A DNA stretch of 64,000 nucleotides from Candidatus Kapaibacterium sp. (GCA_044224925.1 JBGAJM010000010.1:914-64913), one strand, 5' to 3'. Counted from the stretch's first letter, positions 28,490 to 48,648 are shown. Translations and numbers: made by a program. Notes: generated by a model not told the origin, from the letters alone.

Positions 28490-29149
28490 ATGTCCGTCCG
28501 CATCAACCAGATCGCCCCGAACTTCACGGCTGAGACCACGCAAGGCCCGATCAACTTCCACGATTGGATCGGTGATGGGTATGCTGTGCTGTTCTCACAC
28601 CCGAAGGATTTCACGCCGGTGTGCACCACAGAGTTGGGCACCGTGGCCAAGATGCTACCTGATTTTGCCAAGCGCAATACAAAGGTCATCGGGTTGAGCG
28701 TTGACCCGGTTGCAAAGCATCTTGAATGGGAGAAGGATATTGAAGAGACGCAAGGGGCACCGGTGACGTTTCCGATGATCGCCGATACGGACCTTTCGGT
28801 ATCAAAGCTGTACGACATGCTTCCCGAAGACGAAGGTGATTCGCATGAAGGCCGTACGGCGGTGAACAATCAAACCGTACGCACGGTGTTCATCGTTGGC
28901 CCCGACAAGAAAGTGAAGCTCACCCTTTCCTATCCCATGACGTCAGGCCGAAATTTTGACGAGATCCTTCGCGTCCTCGACTCGATCCAACTCACGGCCA
29001 ACCATAAAGTGGCGACGCCCGCCAATTGGAAGAACGGCGAGGATGTGATCATCGTCACCTCTGTTTCCGATGAAGAAGCCCATGCAAAGTACCCGGACGG
29101 ATTCACGACGGTGAAGCCGTATTTGCGGGTGGTGAAGCAGCCGAAGTAA
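28490..29149 (+). CDS. 1-Cys peroxiredoxin (Prx6-type)
   Basis: MSVRINQIAPNFTAETTQGPINFHDWIGDGYAVLFSHPKDFTPVCTTELG with the peroxidatic Cys in the FTPVCTTE motif. The ORF track starts at 28292 but the true ATG is at 28490, after an AT-rich promoter region. Confidence 0.85.
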   Translation: MSVRINQIAPNFTAETTQGPINFHDWIGDGYAVLFSHPKDFTPVCTTELGTVAKMLPDFAKRNTKVIGLSVDPVAKHLEWEKDIEETQGAPVTFPMIADTDLSVSKLYDMLPEDEGDSHEGRTAVNNQTVRTVFIVGPDKKVKLTLSYPMTSGRNFDEILRVLDSIQLTANHKVATPANWKNGEDVIIVTSVSDEEAHAKYPDGFTTVKPYLRVVKQPK

Positions 29150-29162
29150 GAACGCCTTCGGC

Positions 29163-29333
29163 GTGCGACACGGAGTGCGACACGGAGTGCGACACTTGCG
29201 TGCGACACGGAGTGCGACACGGAGTGCGACACGGAGTGGGACACGGAGTGCGACACGGAGTGCGACACGGAGTGCGACACGGAGTGCGACACTAGAGTGC
29301 GACACGGAGTGTGACACTAGCGTGGGACACCTC
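29163..29333. repeat. intergenic tandem array of about 14 copies of the 12-nt unit GTGCGACACGGA (same unit that encodes S-H-S-V inside the cyclase genes)
   Basis: Head-to-tail repeats gtgcgacacggagtgcgacacgga... with a few variant units (ctagag, ggagtgg). No spacers, so not CRISPR. Confidence 0.9.
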
Positions 29334-30214: not shown

Positions 30215-32044
30215 TCATGGAACGCTTTGCAACCAATAGGTCTTCATCATGCCCTTGCCCTTTATGTCGAACGAACCCCTTCGTTGAGTTACAAGTGACA
30301 AGTGATGAGTGACAAGTGGCACTTCGTTGGATTCTGGATTCTCAGATTCCGTGATTGGATTCTGTATTGTGTATTCTGTATTCGCCTTCAATTGAATGGC
30401 AAAGGCTTCGGAAACATGCACCTTGCCCGGCTCCCCGCTCGACTCCATACGTGAAGCAACGTTCACCGTGTCTCCCCAGACGTCGTATTGAAGCCGCTGC
30501 GTGCCGATGACGCCGGCTGTGGCAGGACCGATGTGGATGCCGACGCGAGACTGTAGTGGCGTGCCATCATGCCATGTGAAGGCATGCTGCATGACATCGA
30601 GTGCAACGTGGGCAATGGACTGTGCATTCGTTGTTGCATCGGCATCGCCGCGGAAGCACATGTAGGAGTCACCGATGGTCTTGACCTTGACCACGTTGTG
30701 CGTGTCGCAGAATGCATCGATTGTACGGAAGATATTCTCGAGCATCTTCACCACATCGGAAGGCGGCATGGAGGATGTATGCGAAGTGAAACTCACGATG
30801 TCGAGGAACATCACGGCGGCATATTCGAAGTGGTCGCCGCTGACGTCTTCGCCGCGGATCATGCGGTCGGCAACGGACTTCGGTAGAGCGCCATACAAAA
30901 GAGCACGCTCCTTGTCTCGCTCGCGCCGTTCCCCTTCCATCCTTCGCTCTGCCTCCATGATTGCCATGCGTTGCGTTGTCTCTTTGCCGCGGATCTCTTC
31001 CGTCAGTCGAAGATACTCTGCATTGTGTTCGATGAATCCGGCAAAGTCGTTGCGCTTCTGAGCAAGATCACGAAGAAGATGCCGAACCTCCGCAGAATAC
31101 GCACGCAGGCCGGCATGCATTGTGATCGCCAGTGCTTCCTGAAGATGTTGGTGCGCCGCATCGAGATCACCACGATGTTCGGCAAGGGAGGCACTATTGG
31201 TCTCACGCTGCGTTCGTACTGCAGGATCGTCCATCGGCATGGTGCCTTGAAGCGCCAACAGTTCTTCGGCTACATCGTACCGATCGAGCTTCGCGAGCGT
31301 GGCGATCACATTGCCGATAGCACGAACGATAGCGGCACGGTCACCCTGTTGCTCAAGCATTGCAAGCGAGTGACGGTAGTGGTCCAACGCCGACAGATCG
31401 TCGCCAGTGAACTTGTATAAACTGCCGATGCTGCTTGTGACGTTTGCTACACCGGCATGGTCGCCCAATTCTTCAAACAGTACCTGCGCGAGACGGTAAT
31501 ACTCCAACGCGGTATCATAGTCGCCGGTACTTGTATACACACTGCCGATGCGTTGCGTATTGCGGGCCACACTGTCGCGTTTCCCCAGCTCTTCAAACAC
31601 CGTCTGCGCGCGGAGATAGTGTTCCATCGCCGATGCGTAGTCACCTGTGTTATTGAAGACGATACCAATGTTTCCCGTGACGAGGGCCACACCGACGCGG
31701 TTGCCCAGCTCTTCATGCAGTGACCGCGCACGACCGTAGGACTCCAGCGCAGATGCGAAGTCGCCGATCTTCAAGTAGGCATTGCCGATGCTGGTGGAAA
31801 CACTTGCAACACCGGTACGGTCACCACGCTCATCATGAAACGCCAACACCAGACGGTAATGCTGCAATGCCGACGGGAAGTCTCCGGCGAGTCCCTCGGC
31901 GATACCCAAGGCATAGTGCGCATGAACCTCAGCCTCTGGCGTGCCAAGCGATCGCATCTCCAGCGCCAGCGCCCGAAGCGCCGGAGCATCACTTCGGTTC
32001 TTTGCATGATCGAAGTCTTCTCTCATCTCTTCGAGCGTTCTCAT
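30215..32044 (-). CDS. TPR-repeat + class III adenylyl cyclase domain protein (paralog P1, subfamily B)
   Basis: About 10 TPR-like 40-aa units (IGNAYLKIGDFASALESYGRARSLHEELGNR...). Coiled-coil linker, then cyclase motifs FLDIVSFT, VKTIGDSYMC, YDVWGDTVNVASRMES and a C-terminal FDIKGKGMMKTYWL. Its stop overlaps the P2 start (ATGA). Confidence 0.8.
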   Translation of the reverse strand: MRTLEEMREDFDHAKNRSDAPALRALALEMRSLGTPEAEVHAHYALGIAEGLAGDFPSALQHYRLVLAFHDERGDRTGVASVSTSIGNAYLKIGDFASALESYGRARSLHEELGNRVGVALVTGNIGIVFNNTGDYASAMEHYLRAQTVFEELGKRDSVARNTQRIGSVYTSTGDYDTALEYYRLAQVLFEELGDHAGVANVTSSIGSLYKFTGDDLSALDHYRHSLAMLEQQGDRAAIVRAIGNVIATLAKLDRYDVAEELLALQGTMPMDDPAVRTQRETNSASLAEHRGDLDAAHQHLQEALAITMHAGLRAYSAEVRHLLRDLAQKRNDFAGFIEHNAEYLRLTEEIRGKETTQRMAIMEAERRMEGERRERDKERALLYGALPKSVADRMIRGEDVSGDHFEYAAVMFLDIVSFTSHTSSMPPSDVVKMLENIFRTIDAFCDTHNVVKVKTIGDSYMCFRGDADATTNAQSIAHVALDVMQHAFTWHDGTPLQSRVGIHIGPATAGVIGTQRLQYDVWGDTVNVASRMESSGEPGKVHVSEAFAIQLKANTEYTIQNPITESENPESNEVPLVTHHLSLVTQRRGSFDIKGKGMMKTYWLQSVP

Positions 32045-34218
32045 GAGGCGTGCTCCAGCCAGTAGGTGTTCATTGCACCCTTTCCTTTGATGTCAATCGA
32101 GCCCCTGAGTTGAGTTACAAGTGACGAAGACACTTCGTGCGACACGGAGTGCGACACGTTGTGCGACACGTTGTGCGACACTTCGTGGAGAATTGGATTC
32201 TTGATTGTTGATTGTTGATTCTTCTCCAATTCAATAGCAAATGCTTCGGTCACCTGCACCCGTCCGGCCTCACCGCTGCTCTCCATTCGTGAGGCCACGT
32301 TGACCGTGTCTCCCCACACATCATACTGCATGCGTTCTTTGCCGATCACTCCTGCCGTCACTGGTCCACAGTGCAATCCAATTCGGAATGCCATTTCGTG
32401 GGATACGTTGATGCGCGACATCTCCAACGCACAGAGCGCGGCGTTCACAACACTATCAAACGCTACGGCCATGTAGCTATCCCCGATCGTCTTGATCTTG
32501 GTGACGCCATGCTTGGTGCAGATCGCATCGCATTGTGTGAACACGTTGTCGAGTAGCTCGATCACATCGTGTGATGACATCGACGATGAGATCTCTGTGA
32601 ATCCGACGATGTCGAGGAAGATGACGGCTGCATTGTCGTAGTGGTCGTTCACCACCTCGCCCCTCGCCACCCTATCCGCCACTTCCTTGGGCAGGGTGGA
32701 ATGGAGCACGGCGAGATGCTTCTGGTGCTCGCGATCCTTTGCATCGATCTCGCGTTGCTTGGCTTGCATGGCGAGCTTGGTTGCAGCCTCATTACCGTTG
32801 ATCTCTTCATGTACACGCATGTATGCGTTGTTGTGTTCGACATAGCCCACAAGGTCGTTTCGTTTGAAGGCAAGGTCGCGCAGTTGCTGATGTACGGCTG
32901 CAACGCTTGGACGGAGTCCGTGCTCTTCGGCTATGCGCAATGCATGCATGAGTGTTGCCTGAGCCTGCTCCACATTGCCGGTGCGATCCTGCACCTTCGC
33001 ACGGCAGATCTCTCGCAAGAGTATCTTTGGCGGTCCATCGAGTTCGAGCGTGTCCAACACGCTCAGTGTTTCGGTTGCCGCATCGAGATCACCCATTGCG
33101 AGATGGAGACCCACCAATGCGCACCGTACGCGCGCAATATTGTAACGTTCGCCAAGCTCTTCCCATTCCGTGAGCGCTTGCTCGTAGTGTTCCTTCGCCA
33201 ATGCATGGTTGCCCTGCTGATCGTACACTTCGCCCAGACCGTGCAAGGCACCCGCCAAATGTGAACGCTCACCCAATTGCGCATACATCGTGCGGGCGCG
33301 TTGGTACTGCGCAATGGCAGCAGATCCTTGTCCCGTACGATGGTGGAGGAGGCCGATTCGAAGCAACGTATACGCAATGCCCTTCTGATTGTCGATCTCT
33401 TCGAAGATATCGAGGGCACGCTCGAAATGTTCGAGTGCGGTCGGGTTATCGCCTGTATCGAAATGCAGAACTCCAATGTTCGTCGTCACGAGTGCTACGT
33501 CATACAACTCATTCAGGTCTGCATGTACAGACATTGATCGATGATAGTGTTCAAGAGCTGCAGCCGTGTCGCCGATCGCTGCGTAGACATTGCCGATGTT
33601 CGCAAGACCACGTGCAATGCTCCCTTGGCCACCTTCATCGCCATACATGTCCAACGAGCGTTGAAAGTACTCAAGTGCCGTTCTGTAGTCTCCACGATTG
33701 TAGTAGACGATGCCCATGTTTCCGGTGATCCGCGCAGCAGAAATGCTCCGTCCCTGTTTGACGCTGAGATCGAGTGCCCGCCGGTAGTACGTCATTGCCG
33801 CATCGTAGTCGTTGAGTTCCAGCAGCACATTCCCGAGGTTCCCGCTGGTGCGCGCCACACTATTGAGATCATTCGCCTCTTCGCCTATAGCGAGCGCTCT
33901 CGAATGGTGGTCAAGTGCCGCCGCGTGGTTCCCTGTTCGATGAAGAGCACTCCCGATATTGTCCAACGCGATCGCCATCCCTGTACGATCACCAAGTGTA
34001 TCATAGAGTGCCAGTGCGGCCCGCAGATGTTCGATCGCTTCATGGTACTTATCATGCGAGAGAACGGCCCACCCACGAGCGCGATGCGCCAACGCTTCTG
34101 CGTTCGGTGATTCCAACGCATCGAGCTCCGTTGCAAGGTCGAGCAGCGCTGCTGCATCGTTGTTCCGTGTAGCCGCAAGGACGTCTGCGTCGATATCGTC
34201 AAACGAGCGTTGTGTCAT
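32041..34218 (-). CDS. TPR-repeat + class III adenylyl cyclase protein (paralog P2, subfamily A) with (SHxV)n insert
   Basis: Start moved to MTQRSFDDIDADV (34218). Cyclase motifs FLDIVGFT, IKTIGDSYMAV, YDVWGDTVNVASRMES. Insert HEVSHNVSHNVSHSVSHEVSSS before the final beta-strand. Confidence 0.8.
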   Translation of the reverse strand: MTQRSFDDIDADVLAATRNNDAAALLDLATELDALESPNAEALAHRARGWAVLSHDKYHEAIEHLRAALALYDTLGDRTGMAIALDNIGSALHRTGNHAAALDHHSRALAIGEEANDLNSVARTSGNLGNVLLELNDYDAAMTYYRRALDLSVKQGRSISAARITGNMGIVYYNRGDYRTALEYFQRSLDMYGDEGGQGSIARGLANIGNVYAAIGDTAAALEHYHRSMSVHADLNELYDVALVTTNIGVLHFDTGDNPTALEHFERALDIFEEIDNQKGIAYTLLRIGLLHHRTGQGSAAIAQYQRARTMYAQLGERSHLAGALHGLGEVYDQQGNHALAKEHYEQALTEWEELGERYNIARVRCALVGLHLAMGDLDAATETLSVLDTLELDGPPKILLREICRAKVQDRTGNVEQAQATLMHALRIAEEHGLRPSVAAVHQQLRDLAFKRNDLVGYVEHNNAYMRVHEEINGNEAATKLAMQAKQREIDAKDREHQKHLAVLHSTLPKEVADRVARGEVVNDHYDNAAVIFLDIVGFTEISSSMSSHDVIELLDNVFTQCDAICTKHGVTKIKTIGDSYMAVAFDSVVNAALCALEMSRINVSHEMAFRIGLHCGPVTAGVIGKERMQYDVWGDTVNVASRMESSGEAGRVQVTEAFAIELEKNQQSTIKNPILHEVSHNVSHNVSHSVSHEVSSSLVTQLRGSIDIKGKGAMNTYWLEHAS

Positions 34219-34326
34219 GGAGGAAAGGAGAATGAGAAGTAAGAAAGAAGGAAAAGAGAAGGAAAAAAGAAGGAAAAAAGAAGTACAAAAGAAGTACAAA
34301 AGAAGTGGCACTTCGTGGGACACATG
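34219..34326. repeat. CT-rich (coding-strand) tandem repeats (TTCCTTCTCTTT / TTGTACTTCTTT units) filling the 108-bp gap between the P3 stop and the P2 start
   Basis: Plus strand reads ggaggaaaggagaatgagaagtaagaaagaaggaaaagagaaggaaaaaagaaggaaaaaagaagtacaaaagaagtacaaaagaagtggcac. Homologous to the tract after P6 (44396..44470). Confidence 0.85.
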
Positions 34327-36285
34327 TCACTCTCTTGATTCCAACCAGTAGGTGTTCATCAGACCCTTGCCCTTGATATCGAACGATCCACGCTCGATAG
34401 TGACAAGTGACGAAGACACAGAGTGCGACACCGAGTGCGACACCGAGTGCGATTGTGGATTCTCCGATTCAGTGATTGGATTCTGTATTATGAATTCTGT
34501 ATTCCTCTTCAATTCCGAGGCAAACGCTTCGGATATATGAACCCGCCCGGCCTCGCCCGCCGACTCCATCCGTGAGGCAACGTTGACGGTGTCGCCCCAC
34601 ACATCGTATTGCAACCGCTGCGTGCCGATGACACCGGCTGTTGCGGGACCGAAGTGGATGCCGACTCGGAACAGCAGTGGATCTCCGTTGGGCCATGTGA
34701 ATGCGTGTTGCATGACATCGAGGGCAACGTGGGCAATGGACAACGCATTTGTCGTCGCATCTGCATCGCCGCGGAAGCACATGTAGGAGTCACCGATGGT
34801 CTTGACCTTGACAACGTCCTGCTTGTCACAGAATGCATCGATCGTACGGAAGATGTTCTCCAACATCTTCACCACGTCGGAAGGCGGCATGGAGGAAGTG
34901 TGCGATGTGAAGCCCACAACATCAAGGAACATCACGGCAGCATGATCGAAATGATCGCCGGTCACATCTTCGCCGCGGATCATACGGTCGGCGACAGACT
35001 TCGGAAGCGCTCCATACAGCAACGCGCGCTCCTTGTCTCGCTCCCGCCTTTCACCTTCCATCCTTCGCTCCGCCTCCATCATCGCTAGTCTTTGCGTGGC
35101 CTCTTTGCCGCGGATCTCTTCGGTGATGCGCTGATACTCGTTGTTGTGCTCAATGTAACCGGCGAAGTCATTACGTTTCTGGGCGAGGTCGCGAAGCATT
35201 TTGTGGCACTCTGCGGAATACCCACGTAGGCCGGCCTCGACCGTGATCGCTAGTGCATCAGTTAGGTGTTGATGCGCCGCATCAAGATCCTCCCAGTGTT
35301 CGGCAAAGTTGGCGCTGTTGGCGTGATATTGACACCGAACAACCGGATCATCCATCTGCATGGTGGCCTGACGCTCCAACAGTTCTGCGGCTTCGTCATA
35401 CCGAATGAGGCCCATGAGTGCCGTGACCACATTGCCGGTGGCGCCGGCCATACCGGCGCGGTCGCCTAGTTCTTCGTGCATCGCTAGCGCGCGGCCGTAA
35501 TGCTCCAGCGCTGCCGTATGGTCGCCTCTTGCACGGAATAGATTTCCAATGTTCGAGGTAATGCTGGCCACGCCAGCTCTGTCGCCAACCCCGTCAAGGA
35601 TCGCCATCGCTCGACGGAAGTACTCAAGTGCGGCCGTGCTGTCGTCGGTGCCGTTGTACACGTTCCCAATACCGTTGGTACTGTGGGCCACGCCCACAGG
35701 GTCACCAAGCAATTCATACAATGCCAATGCGCGGCGGTGGTATTCCAGTGCCGCGGGGTAGTCGTCGGTACTGAAGTACACATTGCCAATGCCATTGGTG
35801 ACGCGGGCCACGCCCGCATCGTCGCCAAGCGATAGATGCAATTCCAATGCGCGGCGATACTGTTCCAATGCCGCCGGATAGTCGCCCGTGTTTGTAAGTA
35901 GATTACCGATATTCCCAGTGATAACGGCCACCCCAGCGAGGTCGCCCAACTCTGTGGGCACCTCCAACGCGCGGCGGTAGTGCTCGAGTGCTCTGGCAAA
36001 ATCGCCGATCTTGCGGTACACATTGCCTATGTTGACAGCGATGCGTGCTATCCCTTGACTGTCACCCAGCGCTTCACGCAATGCCATCGCACTGCGGTAA
36101 TGCTCCAATGCTGCAGGGTACTCGCCCCTGATCACTTCGGCAACACCAAGGGTAGTGTGTGCATGCGCCTCTGCGCTCTGTGTACCAAGCGCTTGCATTT
36201 CATGAGCCAGAGCACGTAGCGACTCAGCGTCATGTTTCGTCATTGCATGATCGACATCTTCCTTGATCTCTTCGAGCGTTCTCAC
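34327..36285 (-). CDS. TPR-repeat + class III adenylyl cyclase protein (paralog P3, subfamily B)
   Basis: Starts MRTLEEIKEDVDHAM (compare P1 MRTLEEMRED). Cyclase motifs FLDVVGFT, VKTIGDSYMC, YDVWGDTVNVASRMES. Insert ...ENPQSHSVSHSVSHSVSSSLVT. Confidence 0.8.
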   Translation of the reverse strand: MRTLEEIKEDVDHAMTKHDAESLRALAHEMQALGTQSAEAHAHTTLGVAEVIRGEYPAALEHYRSAMALREALGDSQGIARIAVNIGNVYRKIGDFARALEHYRRALEVPTELGDLAGVAVITGNIGNLLTNTGDYPAALEQYRRALELHLSLGDDAGVARVTNGIGNVYFSTDDYPAALEYHRRALALYELLGDPVGVAHSTNGIGNVYNGTDDSTAALEYFRRAMAILDGVGDRAGVASITSNIGNLFRARGDHTAALEHYGRALAMHEELGDRAGMAGATGNVVTALMGLIRYDEAAELLERQATMQMDDPVVRCQYHANSANFAEHWEDLDAAHQHLTDALAITVEAGLRGYSAECHKMLRDLAQKRNDFAGYIEHNNEYQRITEEIRGKEATQRLAMMEAERRMEGERRERDKERALLYGALPKSVADRMIRGEDVTGDHFDHAAVMFLDVVGFTSHTSSMPPSDVVKMLENIFRTIDAFCDKQDVVKVKTIGDSYMCFRGDADATTNALSIAHVALDVMQHAFTWPNGDPLLFRVGIHFGPATAGVIGTQRLQYDVWGDTVNVASRMESAGEAGRVHISEAFASELKRNTEFIIQNPITESENPQSHSVSHSVSHSVSSSLVTIERGSFDIKGKGLMNTYWLESRE

Positions 36286-38567
36286 GATGCACCCTCCAAC
36301 CAGTACGTGTTCAATGCACCCTTGCCTTTGATGTCAATCGAGCCACGCTCGATAGTGACGAGTGACGAAGACACTGCGTGCGACACTTCATGCGACACGG
36401 AGTGCGACACGGAGTGCGACACCGAGTGCGACACGGAGTGCGACACGGAGTGCGATTCTGGATTGGGAGATTCCGAGATTGAATTCTGTATTGTGTATTC
36501 TGTATTCGCCTTCAATTGAATGGCAAACGCTTCGGACACCTGCACCCGTCCGGCCTCACCGCTGCTCTCCATTCGTGAGGCAACATTGACGGTGTCTCCC
36601 CACACATCATACTGCATGCGTTCTTTGCCGATAACGCCAGCAGTTACAGGGCCACAGTGCATTCCGATGCGGAAGAGCACTTCGTGCGACACGGGGATAA
36701 CGCCTTCGGCGTGCGACACCGAGTGCGACACGGAGTGCGACACTTCGTGGGAAAGACGAATACGCGACATATCCATGGCGCAGAGTGCAGCGTTGATCAC
36801 GTTGTCAAACGCCACGGCCATGTAGCTATCCCCGATCGTTTTGATCTTGGTGACGCCATACTTGGCACAGATCGCATCGCATTGTGTGAACACATCGTCG
36901 AGCAACTCGATCACATCTTGCGATGACATTGTTGAGGAGATCTCTGTGAAGCCGACGATGTCGAGGAAGATGACGGTTGCATTGTCATAGTGATCATTCA
37001 CCACCTCGCCCCTTGCCACCCTATCGGCCACTTCCTTGGGTAGGGTGGAATGAAGCACGGCCAGGTGTTTTGCGAGCTCGCGTTCACGGGCATCGATCTC
37101 GCGCTGCTTGGCCTGCATGGCGAGCTTGGTGGCCGTTTCCTTGCCGTTGACCTCTTCGGTGATGCGCGTGTATTCGTTGTTGTGCTCGACGTAGCGGGCA
37201 AGATCATTTTGCTCCAGCGCAAGATCGCGGAGGTGCTTGTGTGTCGACGCAATGTAGGGACGCAGTCCATGCTCTTGAGCGATGGCCAACGCGCGCAGGA
37301 GCGAATCGCGGGACTGCTCTGCGTCACCGGCGCGCACCTGCAATTGCGCACGATACACCTCACGCAAGATGTGCTGGTGCGGACTGTCGCTCTGAATTTC
37401 GTCGACGATCCCTAGCAGATCCATGGCATCGCCGTCTTTCTCCGCGGATAGATACATTCCGATCAGAGCATACCGAATGCGTTGAACATTTCCACGTTCG
37501 CCAAGCTCTTCTACGATCGTCAGTGCTCGCTGATACTGCTCAATGGCCGCGAGTTGGTCGCCGTTCCTCGCATACACCTCACCAATTCCGTAGATGGCTT
37601 CGGCCACATGAGAGGGTTCACCCAACTGTTCATACAAGGTACCAGCCCGCTGGTAGTGTTCAAGAGCCGCGGTGGTATCGCCGATGCGGTTGTGCAAGCC
37701 GCCGATACGTTCCAGCACATACGCGATCCCTCTGCGGCTGTCGATCTCTTCATAGATGGTGAGCGCCTGTTGCAAGTAGTCGAGTGCCGATGGATAGTCG
37801 CCGGTTTCGCGGTACACACCACCGATGTTCGCCATCACATGGGCAATACTGTGCGGTTCACCGACCTCCTGATGGATCGACAGTGATCGACGGTACTGCT
37901 CCAACCCCGCTGGATAGTCACCCATCATAAGGTAGGCGTTGCCGATGTTGCCCAAGGTACGAGCGACCGCGCCTCGATCGCCGTGTTCGGCATGCATACT
38001 CAGAGAGCGTTGAAAGTGCTCCAGGGCTGTACGATAGTCACCGAGATTGTAGTAGATGATGCCGATGCTTCCGGTGACAAGTGCGACGGAATTGAGTTCC
38101 CCGAGCTCGCTATTGAGAGCGAGGGCTCGTTGGTAGTTCGTCATGGCCGCGTCGTAGTCGTTGCATTCCAGCATCACGGCAGCAAGATTCCCTGACGCAC
38201 GAGCCACACCACGACGGTCGGCCGTTTCTTCACTTATGGTGAGGGCCCTTCGATGGAAGTTCAACGCTTCAGAATAATCGCCGGTTCGGCAGAGAGCACT
38301 GCCGATATTGTCCAAGGTGACCGCCTGGCCTGCACGGTCGCCAAGCGCTTCATACAGTGCCAACGCAGCACGACCATGCTCCAGCGCTTTGGCATAGTTG
38401 TCGCGCAACAGCATGGCCCATCCGCGTATGCGGTGGGCGAGGGCCTGCGCTTCCGGTGTTGCGACCGTATCGAGCTCGGTGGCAAGGGTCAGCAAGGCGG
38501 CGGCGTCGTTGATCCGCATCGCCGCCTGAACGGCCTCGCGGATCTCGTCAAAGGGGCGGGGTGACAT
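36282..38567 (-). CDS. TPR-repeat + class III adenylyl cyclase protein (paralog P4, subfamily A) with two (SHSV)n inserts
   Basis: Insert 1 is LSHEVSHSVSHSVSHAEGVIPVSHEV, before FRIGMHCGP. Insert 2 is NPESHSVSHSVSHSVSHSVSHSVSHEVSHAVSSS, before LVTIERGSIDIKGKG. Its stop overlaps the P3 start. Confidence 0.8.
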   Translation of the reverse strand: MSPRPFDEIREAVQAAMRINDAAALLTLATELDTVATPEAQALAHRIRGWAMLLRDNYAKALEHGRAALALYEALGDRAGQAVTLDNIGSALCRTGDYSEALNFHRRALTISEETADRRGVARASGNLAAVMLECNDYDAAMTNYQRALALNSELGELNSVALVTGSIGIIYYNLGDYRTALEHFQRSLSMHAEHGDRGAVARTLGNIGNAYLMMGDYPAGLEQYRRSLSIHQEVGEPHSIAHVMANIGGVYRETGDYPSALDYLQQALTIYEEIDSRRGIAYVLERIGGLHNRIGDTTAALEHYQRAGTLYEQLGEPSHVAEAIYGIGEVYARNGDQLAAIEQYQRALTIVEELGERGNVQRIRYALIGMYLSAEKDGDAMDLLGIVDEIQSDSPHQHILREVYRAQLQVRAGDAEQSRDSLLRALAIAQEHGLRPYIASTHKHLRDLALEQNDLARYVEHNNEYTRITEEVNGKETATKLAMQAKQREIDARERELAKHLAVLHSTLPKEVADRVARGEVVNDHYDNATVIFLDIVGFTEISSTMSSQDVIELLDDVFTQCDAICAKYGVTKIKTIGDSYMAVAFDNVINAALCAMDMSRIRLSHEVSHSVSHSVSHAEGVIPVSHEVLFRIGMHCGPVTAGVIGKERMQYDVWGDTVNVASRMESSGEAGRVQVSEAFAIQLKANTEYTIQNSISESPNPESHSVSHSVSHSVSHSVSHSVSHEVSHAVSSSLVTIERGSIDIKGKGALNTYWLEGAS

Positions 38568-38655
38568 GGAGGGAAGTTACGAATCAGAGTGACGAGTGAC
38601 GAGTGACAAGTGACACTTCGTGGGTCCTATATTGTTGATCCTTGATCCTTGATCT

Positions 38656-39936
38656 TTGATTCATCTTCCATCCTCCCCCATGATCCTCCGCTCCTTCCTC
38701 CTCCTGCTTGTCGGCGTGGTCGTGCTTGTCGGACGAGCACAGGGTCAGCATTGCACGAACGACCAGCGCTATACCGACGTGGTGACCTTCGATACCGCCC
38801 AGATCACGATCGGCGCGAATGTTCAATACGGCACGGCCAACGATGTGCAAGGGAGTCCGGTGCCGTTGCTCATGGACCTGTACTATCCGAACCTTGCCGT
38901 CGACCCAGTGGCGGCACGACCGATGATCGTGCTCTTTCATGGAGGCGGGTTCTCGTCGGGTGACAAACAGTCGGGCGACATCCGCGACCTCTGCGTGCAT
39001 CTGGCCATGCGCGGCTTTGTGTGTGCATCCGTGAACTATCGGCTCGGACATGACTTCTCGGAGTACGGACAGTACAAGGCGCGGTATCGCGCGATCCAGG
39101 ATGGCCATGCCGCCCTTCGATTCATTGTGCGCAATGCCGCCACCGTCCGCATCGACACGAACTGGCTGTTCGTTGGCGGACAAAGTGCCGGCTCGTTGCT
39201 GGCGCTGGGCATGGTGTATGCGGATCAGAGCGAGCTCGACAGTATATCGCTGCTCTATGGCACGACGGCTGTGAGCGCGGAGTTGGGAGGCTTGCATACG
39301 TCCGGCAATGCACTGACGAATTCGTATTCCATCAAGGGCATCTTCAACAACTGGGGCGGTGTTGTTGCGAGCGAAGTGGATGCGGACGAAATGATCCCCA
39401 CCATTGCCTTTCACGGTGGCCTCGATCCGTTGGTCCCGATCGATGTCGATACGTCGTTCGCACACTGCGCACTGCTTGGCTCGCGAGCGATCCATGCCGA
39501 TCTGATCGCCAACGGCGTGTGCAGCGAGTTGAACGTAGAGGTATCGGGTGGACACGGCATCTATCGCGATGCTGCAAGCGTGTTCAGAGCACAACATGCG
39601 AGCTGCTTCTTCCGCTCGATCTTCTGTGATCGTTGCTCGAGTTTCTCCACCACCGATTCGATCCCTTCATCGTGCTCGTCCCCTGTCCACGTCGACGAGC
39701 AACCGCGCACCACCTCATTCCACATCGACCCCAATCCTTTCGAAAGCATCATGACCATTGGAGGGTTGGAGGGTGGCGCGGAACTCACGGTCTACAACTG
39801 CTTCGGACAAGTGGTCCGCACAGCTCACGTCGGCAATGGCCCCCTTCACCTTGATGTATCGCCGGGTTTGTACATTCTGCACGTACAACCCACGGGAAAC
39901 AGCAGTAGATTCACGAAGGTGGTGGTGAGGCGATGA
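38656..39936 (+). CDS. alpha/beta-hydrolase esterase/lipase with T9SS C-terminal sorting domain
   Basis: Signal peptide; VLFHGGGFSSGD oxyanion motif; nucleophile elbow GGQSAGS; C-terminal Por domain IDPNPFESIMTIGG...LYILHVQPTGNSSRFTKVVVRR. Confidence 0.75.
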   Translation: MIHLPSSPMILRSFLLLLVGVVVLVGRAQGQHCTNDQRYTDVVTFDTAQITIGANVQYGTANDVQGSPVPLLMDLYYPNLAVDPVAARPMIVLFHGGGFSSGDKQSGDIRDLCVHLAMRGFVCASVNYRLGHDFSEYGQYKARYRAIQDGHAALRFIVRNAATVRIDTNWLFVGGQSAGSLLALGMVYADQSELDSISLLYGTTAVSAELGGLHTSGNALTNSYSIKGIFNNWGGVVASEVDADEMIPTIAFHGGLDPLVPIDVDTSFAHCALLGSRAIHADLIANGVCSELNVEVSGGHGIYRDAASVFRAQHASCFFRSIFCDRCSSFSTTDSIPSSCSSPVHVDEQPRTTSFHIDPNPFESIMTIGGLEGGAELTVYNCFGQVVRTAHVGNGPLHLDVSPGLYILHVQPTGNSSRFTKVVVRR

Positions 39937-40190
39937 AGAAGAGGAATACAGAATACACAATACAGAATTCAATCAAAGAATCAAGGAATCAAGAATCACA
40001 CGAAGTGTCGCACAGCGTGTCGCACAGCGTGTCGCACGCCGAAGGCGTTTTCTTCGTGTCGCACTCCGTGTCGCACGAAGTGCCACTTGTCACTCGTCAC
40101 TCGTCACTTGTCACTGTCGAACGAGGATCGTTCGACATCAAAGGCAAAGGCCCCATGCGCACGTATTGGTTGGAAAGGAGCGATCGATGA
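39933..40190 (+). pseudogene. stand-alone 85-aa ORF that is a chimeric C-terminal remnant of a TPR-cyclase gene
   Basis: MKKRNTEYTIQNSIKESRNQESHEVSHSVSHSVSHAEGVFFVSHSVSHEVPLVTRHSSLVTVERGSFDIKGKGPMRTYWLERSDR joins insert-2-type, insert-1-type and terminal beta-strand sequences. Its TGA stop overlaps the P5 ATG exactly as between intact pairs. Confidence 0.6.
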
Positions 40191-42259
40191 GGACCTTCAA
40201 GGAGATCGCTGCGGACATCGATCGTGCGATGATCAACAACGAAGCGGACGTCTTGCGTTCGCTGGCCCGTGAGGCGCAAGCATTGCATACATGGCAATCA
40301 GAGGCGCTTGCAGAGCTGGCGATGGGAACAGCCGAGCGCCAAATCGGTGCATACACATCGGCGCTTGAGAGTTTCCGTCGTGCGCTTGATCTGTTTGACA
40401 AGAAAGGCGACAAAACAGGATCAGCGCGAGCAATGGGAAGTATCGGCAATGTCCACCACAACATGGGCAACAATGCCTTGGCCATCGAGCAGTACCGTCG
40501 TGCACTCGCACTGCATACTGAGCTCGGTGATCGCATTGGCGTGGCAAGAAGTACGAACAACATGGGCAATGTGTACTACAACACCGGCGACTATCCGTCA
40601 GCACTGGAGCACTACAGAGCTGCATTGGCCACCTATGCAGAGATGGGTGACGTGGTTGCTACGGCTCGCATCACAACGAACATCGGGAACATCTATGGGA
40701 TCACGGGCGACTATCCGTCGGCGCTGGAACACTATCAGCGAGCGCTGCCGTCGCTGGAAGAAATGTCCGACCGTTTTACGATAGCACTCGTCACTGCCAA
40801 CATTGGCGGAGTGTACAAAGCCACCGGTAACAATACCTTGGCACTGGAGCACTTCGATCGTGCACTATCGCTCACGGAAGAGTTGGGCGATCGTGCCAAT
40901 ACAGCTCTTTGCTACGCCAACATGGGGAATGTGTATTCAGAGATCGGTGAGTTCGCAACGGCGCTCGACTACTACTCGCGTGCTCTGGCAAGTGGCAAGG
41001 AACTGGGTGATAGCGCTCTCATCGCCAACATGACAGGCACCTGCTGCGGCGTGTACATCGAGATGGGACGATATGAAGAGGCCTCTGCATGCCTTGATAC
41101 CCTTTCCTCCATGCCATTGGCGAGCCCATTGATCCAATTCGGATACAAGGCCAACTGCAGTGCGCTGGCCCGGCATCGCGGAGATCTTGATGCTGCAACG
41201 GAGCATGCTCTCGAGGCTTTGGAGATCGCCACTTCGGCTGGTTTGCGAGCAGAGGCGGCGCGATGCCACGAACTCCTTCGCGACCTGGCACAGTTGCGGA
41301 ATGACTTCGCCGCCTACATCGAGCACAACAACGAGTTCTCGCGCATCACGCAAGAGATCAACGGCAGGGAGACGGCAACGAAACTGGCCATGCAAGCAAA
41401 GCAGCGCGAGATCGACGAACGCGAGCGTGAGCATCAGAAACACCTTGCCGTCCTCCATTCCACCCTGCCCAAGGAGGTTGCTGAAAGGGTGGCAAGGGGC
41501 GAGGTGGTGAATGATCACTACGACAATGCAACCGTGATCTTCCTTGATATCGTCGGCTTCACGGATCTATCGTCAACAATGTCGTCGCAAGAGGTCATTG
41601 CTCTACTCGACGACGTCTTCACCCAATGCGATGCGATCTGCGAGAAGCATGGCGTCACGAAGATCAAGACGATCGGTGACTCCTACATGGCCGTATCGTT
41701 TGACAGCGTCGTCAACGCTGCACTCTGCGCCTTGGAAATGTCGCGGATTCGTCTTTCCCACGCAGTGTCGCACTCCGTGTCGCACGCAGTGTCGCACGCC
41801 GAAGGCGTCCTCCCCGTGTCGCATGAAGTTACATTCCGTATTGGCGTGCATTGTGGACCTGTGACGGCCGGTGTGATCGGCACGCAGCGTCTTCAATATG
41901 ACGTCTGGGGAGACACGGTGAACGTTGCGTCGCGAATGGAGTCCTCTGGTGAACCAGGGAAGGTGCATGTTTCCGAAGCGTTTGCCATTCAATTGAAGGC
42001 GAATACAGAATACATGATACAGAATCCAATCTCTGAATCTGTGAATCCACAATCCCACGAAGTGTCGCACTCCGTGTCGCACAACGTGTCGCACAACGTG
42101 TCCCACTCCGTGTCCCACTCCGTGTCGCACTCCGTGTCGCACAACGTGTCGCACTCCGTGTCGCACGAAGTGTCTTCGTCACTTGTCACCATCGAACGAG
42201 GATCGATCGACATCAAAGGCAAGGGCCCCATGCGCACCTACTGGCTCGAACAAGCGTGA
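40187..42259 (+). CDS. TPR-repeat + class III adenylyl cyclase protein (paralog P5, subfamily A) with two (SH[SNA]V)n inserts
   Basis: Start MRTFKEIAADIDRAM. Insert 1 is SHAVSHSVSHAVSHAEGVLPVSHEV. Insert 2 is a 10-unit run QSHEVSHSVSHNVSHNVSHSVSHSVSHSVSHNVSHSVSHEVSSS. Confidence 0.8.
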   Translation: MRTFKEIAADIDRAMINNEADVLRSLAREAQALHTWQSEALAELAMGTAERQIGAYTSALESFRRALDLFDKKGDKTGSARAMGSIGNVHHNMGNNALAIEQYRRALALHTELGDRIGVARSTNNMGNVYYNTGDYPSALEHYRAALATYAEMGDVVATARITTNIGNIYGITGDYPSALEHYQRALPSLEEMSDRFTIALVTANIGGVYKATGNNTLALEHFDRALSLTEELGDRANTALCYANMGNVYSEIGEFATALDYYSRALASGKELGDSALIANMTGTCCGVYIEMGRYEEASACLDTLSSMPLASPLIQFGYKANCSALARHRGDLDAATEHALEALEIATSAGLRAEAARCHELLRDLAQLRNDFAAYIEHNNEFSRITQEINGRETATKLAMQAKQREIDEREREHQKHLAVLHSTLPKEVAERVARGEVVNDHYDNATVIFLDIVGFTDLSSTMSSQEVIALLDDVFTQCDAICEKHGVTKIKTIGDSYMAVSFDSVVNAALCALEMSRIRLSHAVSHSVSHAVSHAEGVLPVSHEVTFRIGVHCGPVTAGVIGTQRLQYDVWGDTVNVASRMESSGEPGKVHVSEAFAIQLKANTEYMIQNPISESVNPQSHEVSHSVSHNVSHNVSHSVSHSVSHSVSHNVSHSVSHEVSSSLVTIERGSIDIKGKGPMRTYWLEQA

Positions 42260-44376
42260 GAGGCTTCGACGACATCGAAGCAGACCTCCGTCATGCCTAT
42301 GCCGTGAACGATGCCGAGGCATTGCTTCGATTTGCCGACGAACTCGACAACATCACAACACCACAGGCCGCAGCGCACGCACAGCGTGCGAGAGGGTGGG
42401 CGCTGCTGTTGCGCGGCGAGTTCACTCCCGCCATGCATCACTTCGAACAGGCGCTGACGCTTTGCGAAGAGCTCGACGATCAGGAGGGTGTGGCGCGGGT
42501 GGTGAGCAACATCGGTAGTGTGTATGTCTGCACAGGCGATGTGTCCATGGCGCTCGAGCACTACCGTCGCGCACTGGCATTGCACGAACAACTTGGCAAT
42601 CGCAGTGGTGCTGCCGTGGTGATGGGCAACCTTGGTAAACTCTCGACCGACACCGGTGACTACCCCGCTGCCGTCGAGTACTTCCGTCGCGCATTGTCGA
42701 TCCACGAAGAACTTGGCAACCGCAGCGGCATCGCCGTGGTCACCACCAACCTTGGCAATCTCTATCTCAGCATGGGCGACTTCCCTGCCGCCCTCGAGCA
42801 CTACCACAAGGCCCTTGCCCTGCATGAGGAATTCGGCGATCGTCACGCCATTGCCGTCGTCACGGGAAACATCGGCATCGTTCACAACTATACCGGCAAC
42901 TACCCTGCCGCCTTGGAATTCTTCCACCGTGCCCTTGCCTTGCATGAAGAGCTTGGCGATCGCAGCACGGCGGCCACCGTCATCGGCAACATGGGCGTTG
43001 CGCTTGCGAACACGGATGATCAAGAAGCGGCGTTGGAGCATTACCTGCGCGCGTTGGCGCTGTATGAAGAGCTTGGCGATCGGCGATGCATGGCGAACTT
43101 CATGAGCAACATCGGCAGTGCGTACAACGACATGGGACAGCACCCGGAAGGGCTCGCCTATCACCGTCGCGCACTGACCTTGTTCGAAGAGCTCGGCAAT
43201 CCGAAAGGTGGTGCCAATGCCATGGTCAACATGATCGGCGCACACATTGCCATGGGTGAGGATGCCGAGGCACAAACGCTTCTTCAGAGGATGGACACAA
43301 TGCAGGTGGACGAGCCCGAGATCCGCATCGCACGTGAGCAACATCGGGCTGAGCTACAGGAGCGAAACGGTGATCGCGATAGCGCGATCGCTACACTGCG
43401 CCATGTGCTCGCAGTGGCGCATGAACACGACCTCCCGTCTAATGTTGCCGAAACACATCGGCGGCTGCGCGACGTGGCGTATCGACAGCAAGATCTGTCC
43501 GCCTACGTCGAACACAACGATGCCTTCTCGCGCATCACGCAGGAGATCAACGGAAAGGAAACAGCGATACGACTTGCCATGCAGACCAAGCAGCGCGAGA
43601 TCGATGCCCGCGAACGCGAGTACGCCAAACAGATGGCCGTGCTCCATTCCGCCTTGCCAAAACATGTGGCGGATAGGGTGGCACGGGGCGAGGTGGTGAA
43701 CGATGCATTCGACAATGCGACCGTGATCTTCCTCGACATTGTGGGGTTCACGACGATGTCGTCGTCCATGTCGTCCCAAGACCTCATCCAGCTCCTCGAC
43801 CGCATCTTCACGGCATTCGATGACATCTGTGAGCGGCACGGCGTGACGAAGATCAAGACCATCGGCGATTCATACATGGCTGTGGCGTTCGATAGTGTTG
43901 TGAACGCCGCACTCTGCGCTTTAGAGATGTCGCGGTTTCGCATCTCCCACGAAGTGTCGCACTCAGTGTCGCACTCCGTGTCGCACAACGTTGCATTCCG
44001 CATCGGAATGCACTGCGGGTCGGTAACGGCGGGCGTGATCGGCAAGGAGCGCATGCAGTATGATGTGTGGGGAGACACGGTGAATGTTGCGTCACGCATG
44101 GAGAGTTCAGGAGAGGCCGGGCGGGTGCATGTGTCCGAAGCGTTTGCAATTCAATTGAAGGCGAATACAGAATACACAATACAGAATTCAATCACGGAAT
44201 CCCCAAATCCAGAATCCCACGAAGTGTCACACTCCGTGTCGCACAACGTGTCGCACAACGTGTCGCACTCCGTGTCGCACTCCGTGTCTTCGTCACTTGT
44301 AACTATCGAGCGTGGCTCGATCGATATCAAAGGCAAGGGTGCAATGCAGACCTACTGGCTTGAGTCGAGAGATTAG
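42256..44376 (+). CDS. TPR-repeat + class III adenylyl cyclase protein (paralog P6, subfamily A)
   Basis: Start overlaps the P5 stop (ATGA). Inserts SHEVSHSVSHSVSHNVAFRIG and ESHEVSHSVSHNVSHNVSHSVSHSVSSS. Canonical cyclase motifs present. Confidence 0.8.
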   Translation: MRGFDDIEADLRHAYAVNDAEALLRFADELDNITTPQAAAHAQRARGWALLLRGEFTPAMHHFEQALTLCEELDDQEGVARVVSNIGSVYVCTGDVSMALEHYRRALALHEQLGNRSGAAVVMGNLGKLSTDTGDYPAAVEYFRRALSIHEELGNRSGIAVVTTNLGNLYLSMGDFPAALEHYHKALALHEEFGDRHAIAVVTGNIGIVHNYTGNYPAALEFFHRALALHEELGDRSTAATVIGNMGVALANTDDQEAALEHYLRALALYEELGDRRCMANFMSNIGSAYNDMGQHPEGLAYHRRALTLFEELGNPKGGANAMVNMIGAHIAMGEDAEAQTLLQRMDTMQVDEPEIRIAREQHRAELQERNGDRDSAIATLRHVLAVAHEHDLPSNVAETHRRLRDVAYRQQDLSAYVEHNDAFSRITQEINGKETAIRLAMQTKQREIDAREREYAKQMAVLHSALPKHVADRVARGEVVNDAFDNATVIFLDIVGFTTMSSSMSSQDLIQLLDRIFTAFDDICERHGVTKIKTIGDSYMAVAFDSVVNAALCALEMSRFRISHEVSHSVSHSVSHNVAFRIGMHCGSVTAGVIGKERMQYDVWGDTVNVASRMESSGEAGRVHVSEAFAIQLKANTEYTIQNSITESPNPESHEVSHSVSHNVSHNVSHSVSHSVSSSLVTIERGSIDIKGKGAMQTYWLESRD

Positions 44377-44395: not shown

Positions 44396-44500
44396 CCACT
44401 TCTCTTGTACTTCTTTCTTCCTTCTCTTTTCCTTCTCTTTTCCTTCTCTTTTCCTTCTCTTTTCCTTCTCGTGACTCGTCACTCGTCACTTGTCACTTCC
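44396..44500. repeat. CT-rich 12-nt tandem repeat (TTCCTTCTCTTT x5) followed by 9-mer units (GTGACTCGTCACTCGTCACTTGTCAC), downstream of P6
   Basis: cttctcttgtacttctttcttccttctcttttccttctcttttccttctcttttccttctcttttccttctcgtgactcgtcactcgtcacttgtcac. Homologous to the P3/P2 intergenic tract. Confidence 0.85.
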
Positions 44501-45734
44501 ACAACATCCCCACCGGCACGGCATACATGTTGTTCCCAAAGCCAACACATGCAGTACCGTCATAGAGCACCACGCCGGCCACGAATCGATCACCTGCTAA
44601 CGACTTGAGTTTGCGAAGTCCGCGGAAGTCTGCGGCCGTTACCGTTGCCGAAGCCTTGACCTCAATGCCGGCCACCTGATGTTGCCCGCGCTCGAGTACA
44701 AGATCTACTTCTACACCATCCTTGTCGCGAGCATGAGAAAAGCGGATGTGATCCGTACGCCAACTAGCCTGCTTGAAGAGTTCTTGCACGACAAAGGTCT
44801 CGAGCAGCGGCCCAACCTTCGTACGATCATTCCACAGTGTCTCTTCGTTGAGCCCAAGCAGTGCACATGCAACACCTGTGTCAACGATATGCAGCTTCGA
44901 TGCCTTGACGAGACGATTCATCTGATTCACATGCCACGGTGGAAGTCTGTCGACAAGGAAGATCTGCTCCAGCAAGGTCATGTAGGACGCGATCGTTGTG
45001 CGGCTCATCTGAAACGGCGACGCAAGATCACTGATGTTCACTAAGCTCGACGTTTGTCCGGCCGTCATCACGAGCAGTCGGTGCAACACATCAACCGATG
45101 CGATCCGCGCAATGTCTCGCGCATCACGCTGAATGATCGATGTGCTATAGTCACGATACCATGCCGCTCGACGATACTCTTGCGTGCGTCGAAGTGCACG
45201 CGGATACCCGCCGGAAACGATACGCGTGATCAGGTCACGACCAAGTCGCTCAACCGTTCGCGTCGGGAACGACCCCTCGAACAGCGTGTCCAGAAACCGA
45301 GGTGTTGTCCCCGCCAGCTCGGACTGTGAAAATGGATACATGCGCAGGATGCTCATCCTACCGGCCAAGGAGTCTGCCAAGGTGGGAAGGAACAGGATAT
45401 TCGCAGAGCCGGTGAGTAGCACTTGCCCCGGTACGTTTCGCGCGTCAACTCGCGCCTTGAGAGGTGCGAAGATCGTAGGCACGCGTTGTACTTCGTCCAA
45501 AACGGCTCGGTTCGGCAGATCAGCCACGAAACCTGCGGGATCTGCCTTCGCCGACTTCAGGAGGGCAGGGTCGTCAAAGCTGAAGTACGTGTAGCCTTGG
45601 AATGCTGTAAGTTCCTTTGATGTTGTAGACTTACCACATTGCCTCGGACCATGCAGTAGCACCACCAGAGAATCTTCCAGGGCCTCGAGCAAGGACGGCA
45701 TACACGAGCGAACGATGGTCTGATCGGTGTCCAT
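44493..45734 (-). CDS. AAA+ family ATPase (COG1373-like, DUF4143 C-terminal region)
   Basis: Internal start MDTDQTIVRSCMPSLLEALEDSLVVLLHGPRQCGKST (Walker A). The ORF track extends to 45773. Confidence 0.6.
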   Translation of the reverse strand: MDTDQTIVRSCMPSLLEALEDSLVVLLHGPRQCGKSTTSKELTAFQGYTYFSFDDPALLKSAKADPAGFVADLPNRAVLDEVQRVPTIFAPLKARVDARNVPGQVLLTGSANILFLPTLADSLAGRMSILRMYPFSQSELAGTTPRFLDTLFEGSFPTRTVERLGRDLITRIVSGGYPRALRRTQEYRRAAWYRDYSTSIIQRDARDIARIASVDVLHRLLVMTAGQTSSLVNISDLASPFQMSRTTIASYMTLLEQIFLVDRLPPWHVNQMNRLVKASKLHIVDTGVACALLGLNEETLWNDRTKVGPLLETFVVQELFKQASWRTDHIRFSHARDKDGVEVDLVLERGQHQVAGIEVKASATVTAADFRGLRKLKSLAGDRFVAGVVLYDGTACVGFGNNMYAVPVGMLWK

Positions 45735-45754
45735 GATTCTGCAATCTACGAAAT

Positions 45755-45873: not shown

Positions 45874-45879
45874 CGTAAC

Positions 45880-48579: not shown

Positions 48580-48648
48580 TCTTCGATTCTGTATTATGTA
48601 TTCTTGATCCTGTATTCTTGATTCTGTATTGATCTTCCCATTCCCCTG

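Follow-up and report, generated by a model that had tools for sequence, protein, structure and literature searches.

Repeats that enter the coding sequences of bacteria have been described in several forms, and these are the closest known systems to the inserts analyzed here, which interrupt the catalytic domains of eight paralogous nucleotidyl cyclases encoded within a 64,000-nucleotide (nt) stretch of Candidatus Kapaibacterium sp. DNA (GCA_044224925.1 JBGAJM010000010.1:914-64913; below, the window). The Rickettsia palindromic elements (RPEs) were reportedly presented by Ogata et al. in 2000 as ‘selfish DNA in protein-coding genes’, a subject also mentioned in PMC1779305. The cyclase repeats resemble RPEs in that one repeat family is found both between genes and in frame within conserved genes, where it is tolerated at surface-exposed positions. 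However, RPEs are single dispersed palindromic elements of ~100-150 bp, whereas the cyclase inserts are composed of head-to-tail 7-, 8- and 12-nt units in variable copies, without inverted repeats. The latter are also concentrated in one paralog family at fixed loops, and they do not form a discrete palindrome of fixed length.

A second likeness is to heptamer direct repeats between genes, among them the short tandemly repeated repetitive (STRR) sequences of cyanobacteria. TAACTGA heptamer repeats occur in Beggiatoaceae, Cyanobacteria and Bacteroidetes, in intergenic DNA and often a few nt upstream of start codons (PMC4679880). They are mixed with other heptamers and suspected of involvement in rearrangements, while the copies within open reading frames (ORFs) are mostly placed at protein termini or in hypothetical proteins (PMC4679880). 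Intergenic heptamers are also abundant in the window, often just upstream of start codons, but the units are different – GTCACT(C/T), GAATACA and ATCAAGG – and copies stand in the middle of the catalytic domain of all eight paralogs, joined by a 12-mer family. Intragenic repeats of the variable number of tandem repeats (VNTR) type share with the inserts a unit length that is a multiple of 3 nt, a copy number that varies between relatives while the flanks are conserved, and a location in low-complexity loops. VNTRs are usually described as gene-specific and from surface or antigenic proteins, whereas here a cytoplasmic signalling enzyme is affected and the repeats are common with a genome-wide intergenic pool. 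The enzymes themselves resemble class III cyclases (PF00211; Rv1625c-type, 5o5k) in fold, canonical catalytic residues and a predicted homodimer with the Lys/Asp specificity pair for ATP, but differ from them in disordered inserts of 26-67 residues within the α3-β4 and α5-β7 loops.

We propose, with a probability of roughly 0.7, that the inserts are translated, slippage-prone repeat DNA residing in permissive cyclase loops and exchanged by recombination, without a specific insert function. The proposal builds on what the data described below show: which repeats make up the inserts, that copies of them lie between genes, that their reading frame is constrained, that they sit in loops and that copy numbers differ.

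Cyclase genes of the window

Eight paralogs combining tetratricopeptide repeats (TPRs) with a class III cyclase domain were distinguished. They are arranged as three head-to-tail groups with overlapping stop and start codons:

30215-32044, P1
32041-34323, P2
34327-36285, P3
36282-38567, minus strand, P4 (from translation and Pfam)
40166-42259, P5
42256-44376, P6
52346-54799, P7
54436-56556, P8

In the product of P4 (761 amino acids) an array of TPRs at the N terminus is followed by a class III nucleotidyl cyclase domain at the C terminus, as indicated by Pfam matches to TPR_12 and PF00211 (E = 4.8e-47). PF00211 was matched by three paralogs in all, with E-values of 4.8e-47, 6.6e-50 and 8.9e-52, and matches of the window cyclases to cyclases in the PDB reach E = 2.9e-45. 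In the alignment of the catalytic domains none of the eight paralogs departs from residues D34, K74, D78, D152, N159, R163 and K245/K247. We take these to be, on the basis of mammalian C1/C2 structures, the two metal-binding Asp residues, the Lys/Asp specificity pair, the Asn/Arg transition-state pair and the Lys of the KGKG motif. Because the enzyme core is intact, cyclase activity can be predicted, and the proteins are most likely adenylate cyclases with floppy Ser/His-rich loops. A literature search on Kapabacteria adenylate cyclase gave no match.

Overlaps of 4 nt (GTGA or ATGA) join the tandem cyclase genes at 36282-36285, 32041-32044 and 42256-42259, and the same is seen at 40187-40190. 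This suggests translational coupling within each cyclase array.

Insert sites and composition of the inserts

The original prediction placed two insertion hotspots within the catalytic domain, and the alignment of the eight domains confirmed this, as gaps are confined to two places. Site 1 is flanked by ...ALCALEMSR(I/F)R and FRIGxHCGP, and site 2 by ...AFAIQLKA and (I/Q)(E/L)RGSxDIKGKG. The most variable component is a repeated tetrapeptide, VSHx, whose units number 0-6 at site 1 and 0-11 at site 2; P1 has none at either site, while P3 and P8 have none at site 1. The prediction had given a range from 0 (P1) to about 13 (P7); its lower end agrees with our count, but P7 carries 11 units at site 2 and another 5-6 at site 1. 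The Tandem Repeats Finder scores of the cyclase arrays are 56-164, and the arrays are therefore far beyond chance. The individual inserts are as follows:

30287-30382, minus strand, P1 site 2, heptamer and 8-mer parts only, without 12-mer units
32392-32409, minus strand, P2 site 1, a single unit
32113-32220, minus strand, P2 site 2, 4 units and the variant heptamer AATCAAC
34399-34503, minus strand, P3 site 2, 3 units
36678-36755, minus strand, P4 site 1, five 12-nt GTGTCGCACNNN units and the variant unit GCCGAAGGCGTT, with the sequence LSHEVSHSVSHSVSHAEGVIPVSHEV
36354-36506, minus strand, P4 site 2, NTEYTIQNSISESPNPESH(SVSH)n...SSSLVT, with GAATACA heptamers at 36483-36507, AATCNNNG units, seven 12-mers at 36370-36455 and GTCACT heptamers at 36354-36368
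41753-41830, plus strand, P5 site 1, 5 units, the GCCGAAGGCGTC variant among them
42002-42190, plus strand, P5 site 2, 10 units
43942-43992, plus strand, P6 site 1, 4 units
44164-44304, plus strand, P6 site 2, 6 units
52796-52870, minus strand, P7 site 1, 5-6 units
52424-52624, minus strand, P7 site 2, 11 units, the longest array
54817-54864, minus strand, P8 site 1, GAATACA-type heptamer DNA in place of the 12-mers (IQYTIQNTESNPRMLQ)
54505-54648, minus strand, P8 site 2, 5 units and a long GTCACT heptamer tail (PLVTRHLSLVT)

The DNA of the inserts consists of short tandem repeats: the 12-mer GTGTC(G/C)CACNNN, the heptamers GAATACA and GTCACT(C/T), and 8-mers of the AATCNNNG type. Site 2 is a composite of fixed order. 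It begins with ~3.6 copies of GAATACA, encoding NTEYTIQN, followed by the 8-mers, which encode SI(S/T)ESxNPES, and by n copies of the 12-mer, which encode VSHx; it is closed by the junction CACGAAGTG(T/C)C... and GTCACT(C/T) heptamers (SSSLVT or PLVTRHLSLVT). Heptamer DNA thus also encodes the residues at the flanks, N(TEY) and (S)LVT. Site 1 carries the 12-mer of site 2, and in P4 and P5 also the GCCGAAGGCGTT unit (AEGV). A start of site 2 with a TIQN-type module, supposed to be general, was seen in 7 of the 8 paralogs, while P2 has NQQSTIKNPIL, encoded by its variant heptamer. The supposed presence of this module at site 1 of P8 was corroborated by the GAATACA-type DNA found there, which is read in the frame also used at site 2.

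Instability of the 12-mer, which is quasi-palindromic, driven by hairpin formation was considered and rejected: the DNA fold (-18.7 kcal/mol vs -15.2 ± 2.3 for shuffles, z = -1.5) is not significant.

The same repeats outside the cyclase genes

The repeats of the inserts also form arrays in intergenic DNA of the window, including the following:

29159-29317, minus strand, intergenic array of 13 12/13-mer units, 13-nt units and the GCCGAAGGCGTT variant included, between a peroxiredoxin gene and an unrelated ORF
26405-26483, minus strand, second 12/13-mer array, unlinked to any cyclase
38587-38660, minus strand, intergenic cluster directly upstream of the P4 start codon, with ATCAAGG units, CACGAAGTGTCACTT and then GTCACTC heptamers
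56640-56766, plus strand, intergenic GTCACT(C/T) array of ~18 copies; in the cyclases this heptamer specifies the SLVT with which strand β7 opens

Intergenic GTCACT(C/T) arrays lie at 38587, 44468, 45863, 56640 and 62790, and ATCAAGG-type units were found in intergenic DNA at 38635 and 57798. The correspondence extends to details. The junction sequence of the 38587-38660 cluster is that of site 2, and the junction CACGAAGTG(C/T)CACTT recurs in intergenic clusters. Coding and non-coding arrays have in common this junction, the variant GCCGAAGGCGTT, the main spacers TCC, GAA and GCA, and both variants of the core codon, TCG and TCC, each of which specifies Ser.

The nearest available genome is a metagenome-assembled genome (MAG), ‘Bacteroidetes bacterium SZAS-90’ (GCA_018266735.1), in which the locus is syntenic (DNA identity of 92.6% for the peroxiredoxin gene and 88.5% for the esterase gene). 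When three consecutive 12-mers were sought in 185,579 species-representative genomes, 12 loci were found in SZAS-90, distributed over four contigs, some of them in cyclases. Its intergenic arrays are placed beside a tRNA gene (L021), upstream of a truA-like gene (L002) and downstream of a P-type ATPase gene (L012), with others on L014 and L024. One locus (L003) carries the complete GAATACA + AATC + 12/13-mer composite without surrounding cyclase sequence. A small intergenic array was also found in an Ignavibacteria MAG (L004), and the other matches (Verrucomicrobiales, Bordetella, Streptococcus and others) were single three-unit matches. A metagenome scan for a 24-nt heptamer signature found only intergenic GAATACA repeats beside a tRNA gene of an unrelated AT-rich organism (JGI contigs L031-L033); this identical string is probably a convergence of a simple repeat.

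Since arrays of this DNA also lie between genes with no link to cyclases, the inserts belong to the general short-tandem-repeat families of the genome, and the view of them as a cyclase-specific protein module is not borne out. The lineage concerned is an uncultured relative of Kapabacteria/Ignavibacteria within the Bacteroidota-Chlorobi group.

That the composite recurs at several positions in the genome, its parts in unchanged order, could also be explained by insertion of a mobile element, similar to RPEs or to MITEs (miniature transposable elements with inverted repeats), and repeats are a classic source of misassembly. We regard both explanations as highly improbable. The arrays are tandem and of variable length rather than a fixed unit, and paralog alignments reveal no target-site duplication at the insert borders; a MITE or RPE-like element was rejected because the site-2 module has no terminal inverted repeats. 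An assembly artefact is excluded by the same architecture at orthologous positions in the independent SZAS-90 assembly.

Several further features of the intergenic repeats were recorded. Tandem repeats with periods of 7, 8, 11 and 23 nt were distinguished, i.e. GTCACTC, ATCAAGG, CTTCTCTTTTC and the 23-mer TAGTGCGGCTACTTGCCAACTTT (4.8 copies). Repeat-rich stretches lie at 38587-38660, 44399-44497, 45754-45881, 48572-48630, 56640-56766, 57798-57878, 62790-62842 and 34235-34306, and several intergenic arrays finish 10-30 nt ahead of a start codon. A small hairpin spans the TAA stop codon of the peroxiredoxin gene (GCCGAAG...CTTCGGC; 29140-29175; L001 1890-1910 in SZAS-90), formed between the end of this gene and the GCCGAAGGCGTT unit, which is also present in the intergenic array of L024.

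Reading frame and synonymous codons

The presence of coding and non-coding copies of the same repeats at one locus provides an internal control for the colonization of a conserved enzyme's catalytic domain by short tandem repeats. In the cyclase ORFs of both genomes all spacings between units (104/104) are multiples of 3 (12, 24, 27 or 36 nt). By contrast, 21 of the 80 spacings in non-coding arrays are not (13, 25 or 40 nt, mostly due to 13-nt units; Fisher p = 4.6e-9), and the 4-nt spacers GCTA, TCTA, GCAA and TCCC are found outside genes only. This comparison shows the arrays of the cyclase genes to be translated and held in frame by selection.

Heptamer tracts are a different matter in principle, as their unit is not a multiple of 3 and they stand within coding sequence just ahead of an essential segment. 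Slippage in these tracts could switch off strands β7-β8 together with the catalytic KGKG lysine and thereby make the cyclases phase-variable. Phase variation is not supported, however, because every copy is in frame: this holds for all eight paralogs of the window and for all those SZAS-90 paralogs whose catalytic domain is complete, the GAATACA tract is constant at 3.6 copies in every paralog, and the GTCACT tract variants differ in frame. Tracts of 2-4 copies are also short for efficient slippage, and we consider this explanation very unlikely indeed.

The identity of codons specifying the same amino acid in the eight paralogs is 0.79-1.0 across the inserts, compared with 0.48-0.74 in the core. 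Such synonymous identity would be expected of repeat DNA recently homogenized by slippage or gene conversion, and is unlike that of a peptide motif conserved for its chemistry.

High identity at synonymous sites would also fit a regulatory role at the DNA or RNA level, in which the site-2 composite, located ~85 nt before the overlapping stop and start codons, serves the next cyclase gene, for instance as an internal promoter or a binding array of the 5′-UTR type. Similar clusters, with their parts in the same order, lie directly upstream of start codons at 38587-38660 (P4), 34235-34306 (P2) and 56640-56766, and intergenic heptamer arrays near start codons have been proposed as sites of post-transcriptional regulators in other bacteria (PMC4679880). 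If the repeats act in this way, the locus would be a rare case of regulatory repeats within coding sequence. However, the last genes of the arrays (P1, P6 and P7) have the composite without a co-oriented downstream gene, the site 1 arrays are ~600 nt from any start codon, and intergenic arrays are found in either orientation, also between convergent genes. A search of the whole window for Rfam families gave no match, and the folding signal of z = -1.5 does not favor a structured element either. Regulation of the downstream gene therefore seems to us a doubtful explanation.

Structural placement of the inserts

An AlphaFold2 monomer model of the P4 catalytic region was generated from a 105-sequence alignment (mean predicted local distance difference test score (pLDDT) of 84.8, predicted template modelling score (pTM) of 0.81), and the flanks of the inserts are well formed in it. 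The model has the cyclase fold (βαββαβ), with best Foldseek matches to 5o5k (template modelling (TM) score of 0.83), GC-A and Rv1625c, the target-normalised TM scores being ~0.8. Site 1 (residues ~100-129; pLDDT 57-77) is a coil between helix 88-99 (α3) and strand 130-144 (β4). Site 2 (187-233) is a coil between helix 177-186 (α5) and strand 234-244 (β7), with pLDDT below 50 at 203-230. The corresponding alignment segments, a few flanking residues included, have median lengths of 20 and 13 residues in 97 homologs.

According to the model, both inserts sit in loops that appear permissive, disordered and surface-exposed, their relation to the dimer interface being judged from the monomer and from published cyclase structures. 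This agrees with the suggestion of the original prediction that the inserts are loops rather than core secondary-structure elements. Strand β7 opens with the last heptamer-encoded residues, (S)LVT, and the preceding helix is capped by the first one, so that the repeat DNA borders on structural residues and encodes part of them. The locus shows which loops of a class III cyclase tolerate 25-70 extra disordered residues, and these loops are natural insertion-tolerant sites for cyclase engineering.

Inserts in distant relatives

Cyclases of related species were screened for the same inserts. In homologs from related uncultured bacteria labelled Kapabacteria, Ignavibacteriae or Chlorobi these two loops are likewise occupied by inserts, as is a third one, between GDSYMAVAF and helix α3, but the insert sequences differ, each being genome-specific. 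Protein P0001 has NEAL/AKAL repeats at both sites, while P0006, P0009 and P0010 have (E/D)GSP and LPES repeats at site 1. The third loop is occupied by SSSEQR or EQPNSRI repeats.

The underlying DNA is again repetitive. On contig L026 the repeats are the 7-mers CGAGCAG and ATTCCCC, the 12-mer TTCCCCTGAAAG, a 15-mer and a 30-mer containing GTCATTCCGAG. Site 2 on contig L028 is composed of 1-3 copies of a 33-nt palindromic unit, CCCGGCCTTCGCCGGGGTGACGAAGGAA, and CTGACTC heptamers. Some of these repeats are also found outside the cyclase loops of the same contigs: CTGACTC at position 1162 of L028, and both GGGAAC and GTCATTCCGAG in the intergenic DNA of L026. In a more distant genome (GCA_964467455.1, L029) in-frame repeats were detected in housekeeping genes encoding the helicase HrpB (ERVKGWKG) and the glycine dehydrogenase GcvP (GSPx), and in a gene for a LytTR protein. 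The repeats noted on L029, an 8-mer shared with its cyclase among them, lie at 4354-4440, 7650-7704, 19033-19068 and 10856-10892.

In these relatives the loops are filled by other repeats, peculiar to each genome and in part found elsewhere too; the cyclase loops are thus the most conspicuous, multi-copy case of how repeat DNA is tolerated generally within a lineage that is rich in repeats.

The L028 palindrome (CCCGGCCTTCGCCGGGG...) is perfect, in frame and translated as DPGLRRGDEGM, followed by CTGACTC (positions 4500-4660, 9891-9979 and 11790-11900). The 8-mer GAATAACC is common to the LytTR-domain gene and the cyclase of L029.

A more elaborate reading of the three fixed loops is that they act across the lineage as ‘landing pads’ which continuously exchange sequence with the intergenic repeat pool of each genome, the repeats functioning at the nucleic-acid level, e.g. 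as binding arrays for a post-transcriptional or DNA-binding factor that also recognizes the intergenic arrays. If this were true, the expression or recombination of the tandem cyclase genes would be coupled to that factor, and a dual-coding regulatory element would lie within a catalytic domain. We assign a low probability to it.

Possible roles of the loops

The VSHx loops might alternatively be selected, cyclase-specific regulatory modules (for metal or pH sensing, or for docking), tuned in number for each paralog and shuffled among them. Histidine-rich loops can bind metals. Site 1 approximates the α3-β4 loop, which we take to be part of the Gsα-binding groove in the mammalian cyclase C2 domain (1AZS). 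Regulatory modules would also agree with the use of one frame (VSHx) in every coding array at both sites and with the enrichment of the spacer AAC in coding arrays.

We nevertheless consider such modules unlikely. The same DNA is found in intergenic arrays unrelated to cyclases, conservation is seen at synonymous sites, and the inserts are predicted to be disordered. A specific role of a Ser/His loop is further argued against because the loop repeats of the relatives are chemically unrelated (NEAL, GSP, LPES and DPGLRRGDE), so that no property is conserved, and because P1 and the SZAS-90 ortholog of P6 have no units at all. A specific function of the inserts is thus not supported.

Turnover and probable recombination of the arrays

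At site 2, P6 carries 6 units and its SZAS-90 ortholog none, although the two genes share 88% DNA identity and do not differ at site 1. P4 has 7 units and its closest SZAS-90 counterpart 10-11, while the intergenic array after the peroxiredoxin gene comprises 13 units in the window and ~5 in SZAS-90. By this comparison, repeat copy number apparently turns over fast. Near-identical sequences (strain variants) were sought in protein collections, where the best match was 58% identical.

A simple one-to-one orthology between the window and SZAS-90 was also considered, but failed for several paralogs: these pairs resemble each other in the catalytic region, but reach only 50-63% identity in the TPRs, a mismatch that points to mosaicism. 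A SZAS-90 paralog on L007 has the heptamer insert that P8 carries at site 1, and this arrangement is therefore old. The TPR parts of these two proteins are not similar.

One further cyclase sequence was identified in the window:

39944-40190, plus strand, 3′ remnant of a ninth cyclase, which sets in exactly with the GAATACA heptamers; these follow the stop codon of a type IX secretion system (T9SS) esterase gene by 8 nt

The remnant is still in frame to its end (...VERGSFDIKGKGPMRTYWLERSDR / ...DIKGKGPMRTYWLERSDR), and its stop codon overlaps the P5 start codon. The orthologous remnant of SZAS-90 (L001 14858-15120) is decayed, having gained a 13-nt unit and suffered damage to the KGKG motif. 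Derivation from a present paralog was rejected, as the tail of the remnant is at most 75% identical to any of them; the remnant therefore comes from a lost gene. Together with the frame discipline described above, the decay of the SZAS-90 remnant argues against splicing, bypass or pseudogenes as explanations of the intact arrays.

These data indicate that gene loss, mosaicism and recombination have probably affected the cyclase arrays. Recombination or gene conversion is suggested because the synonymous identity of the inserts is high, the remnant starts at the heptamers, and P8 shares its insert with the L007 paralog without similarity of their TPR parts. The idea of module shuffling between paralogs holds to this extent, but not in the sense of a cyclase-specific module that hops between genes; nor is shuffling needed for the copy-number differences, for which slippage or unequal exchange within arrays would be the simplest account.

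We hypothesize that the arrays gain and lose units through slippage during replication or through unequal exchange. Homologous recombination or gene conversion, to which the synonymous identity and the remnant point, would keep the arrays of the paralogs alike and swap sequence with intergenic arrays. Purifying selection would act on the frame alone, purging 4-nt spacers and leaving the single frame V-S-H-x, while the VSHx peptide itself may be largely neutral.

Several observations weigh against this interpretation of the inserts as tolerated repeat DNA. The spacer AAC (Asn) occurs 18 times in coding arrays and once in non-coding ones, and coding arrays therefore seem to evolve partly on their own. 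The coding arrays, 23 or more over the two sites, are all read from one strand and in one frame (V-S-H-x), although six frames are open, which could reflect common descent or selection for a Ser/His peptide; given this single frame and the surplus of Asn spacers, selection on the peptide may yet play some part. The heptamer beside β7 encodes the first residues of the strand, S-L, in three genomes that use three different heptamers, so the arrays could have arisen in situ rather than been imported from the intergenic pool. Within the window, moreover, the cyclases are the only genes with such arrays. Finally, the copy numbers come from single assemblies, and arrays in eight near-identical paralogs may collapse or turn chimaeric in short-read assembly. 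In a poorly known lineage as rich in repeats as this one, both gene annotation and assembly are error-prone.

Other features of the cyclase loci

The TPR regions of the cyclase genes contain periodic repeats of 120 nt (35641-35884 and 42553-42805), corresponding to 40 residues per period. These reflect ordinary TPR structure and are unrelated to the short repeats of the catalytic domain. Genes encoding an AAA_14/DUF4143 ATPase and a Fic-domain protein recur beside cyclase arrays, at 44493-47076 of the window, 17286-17894 of L001 and 412-2883 of L027.

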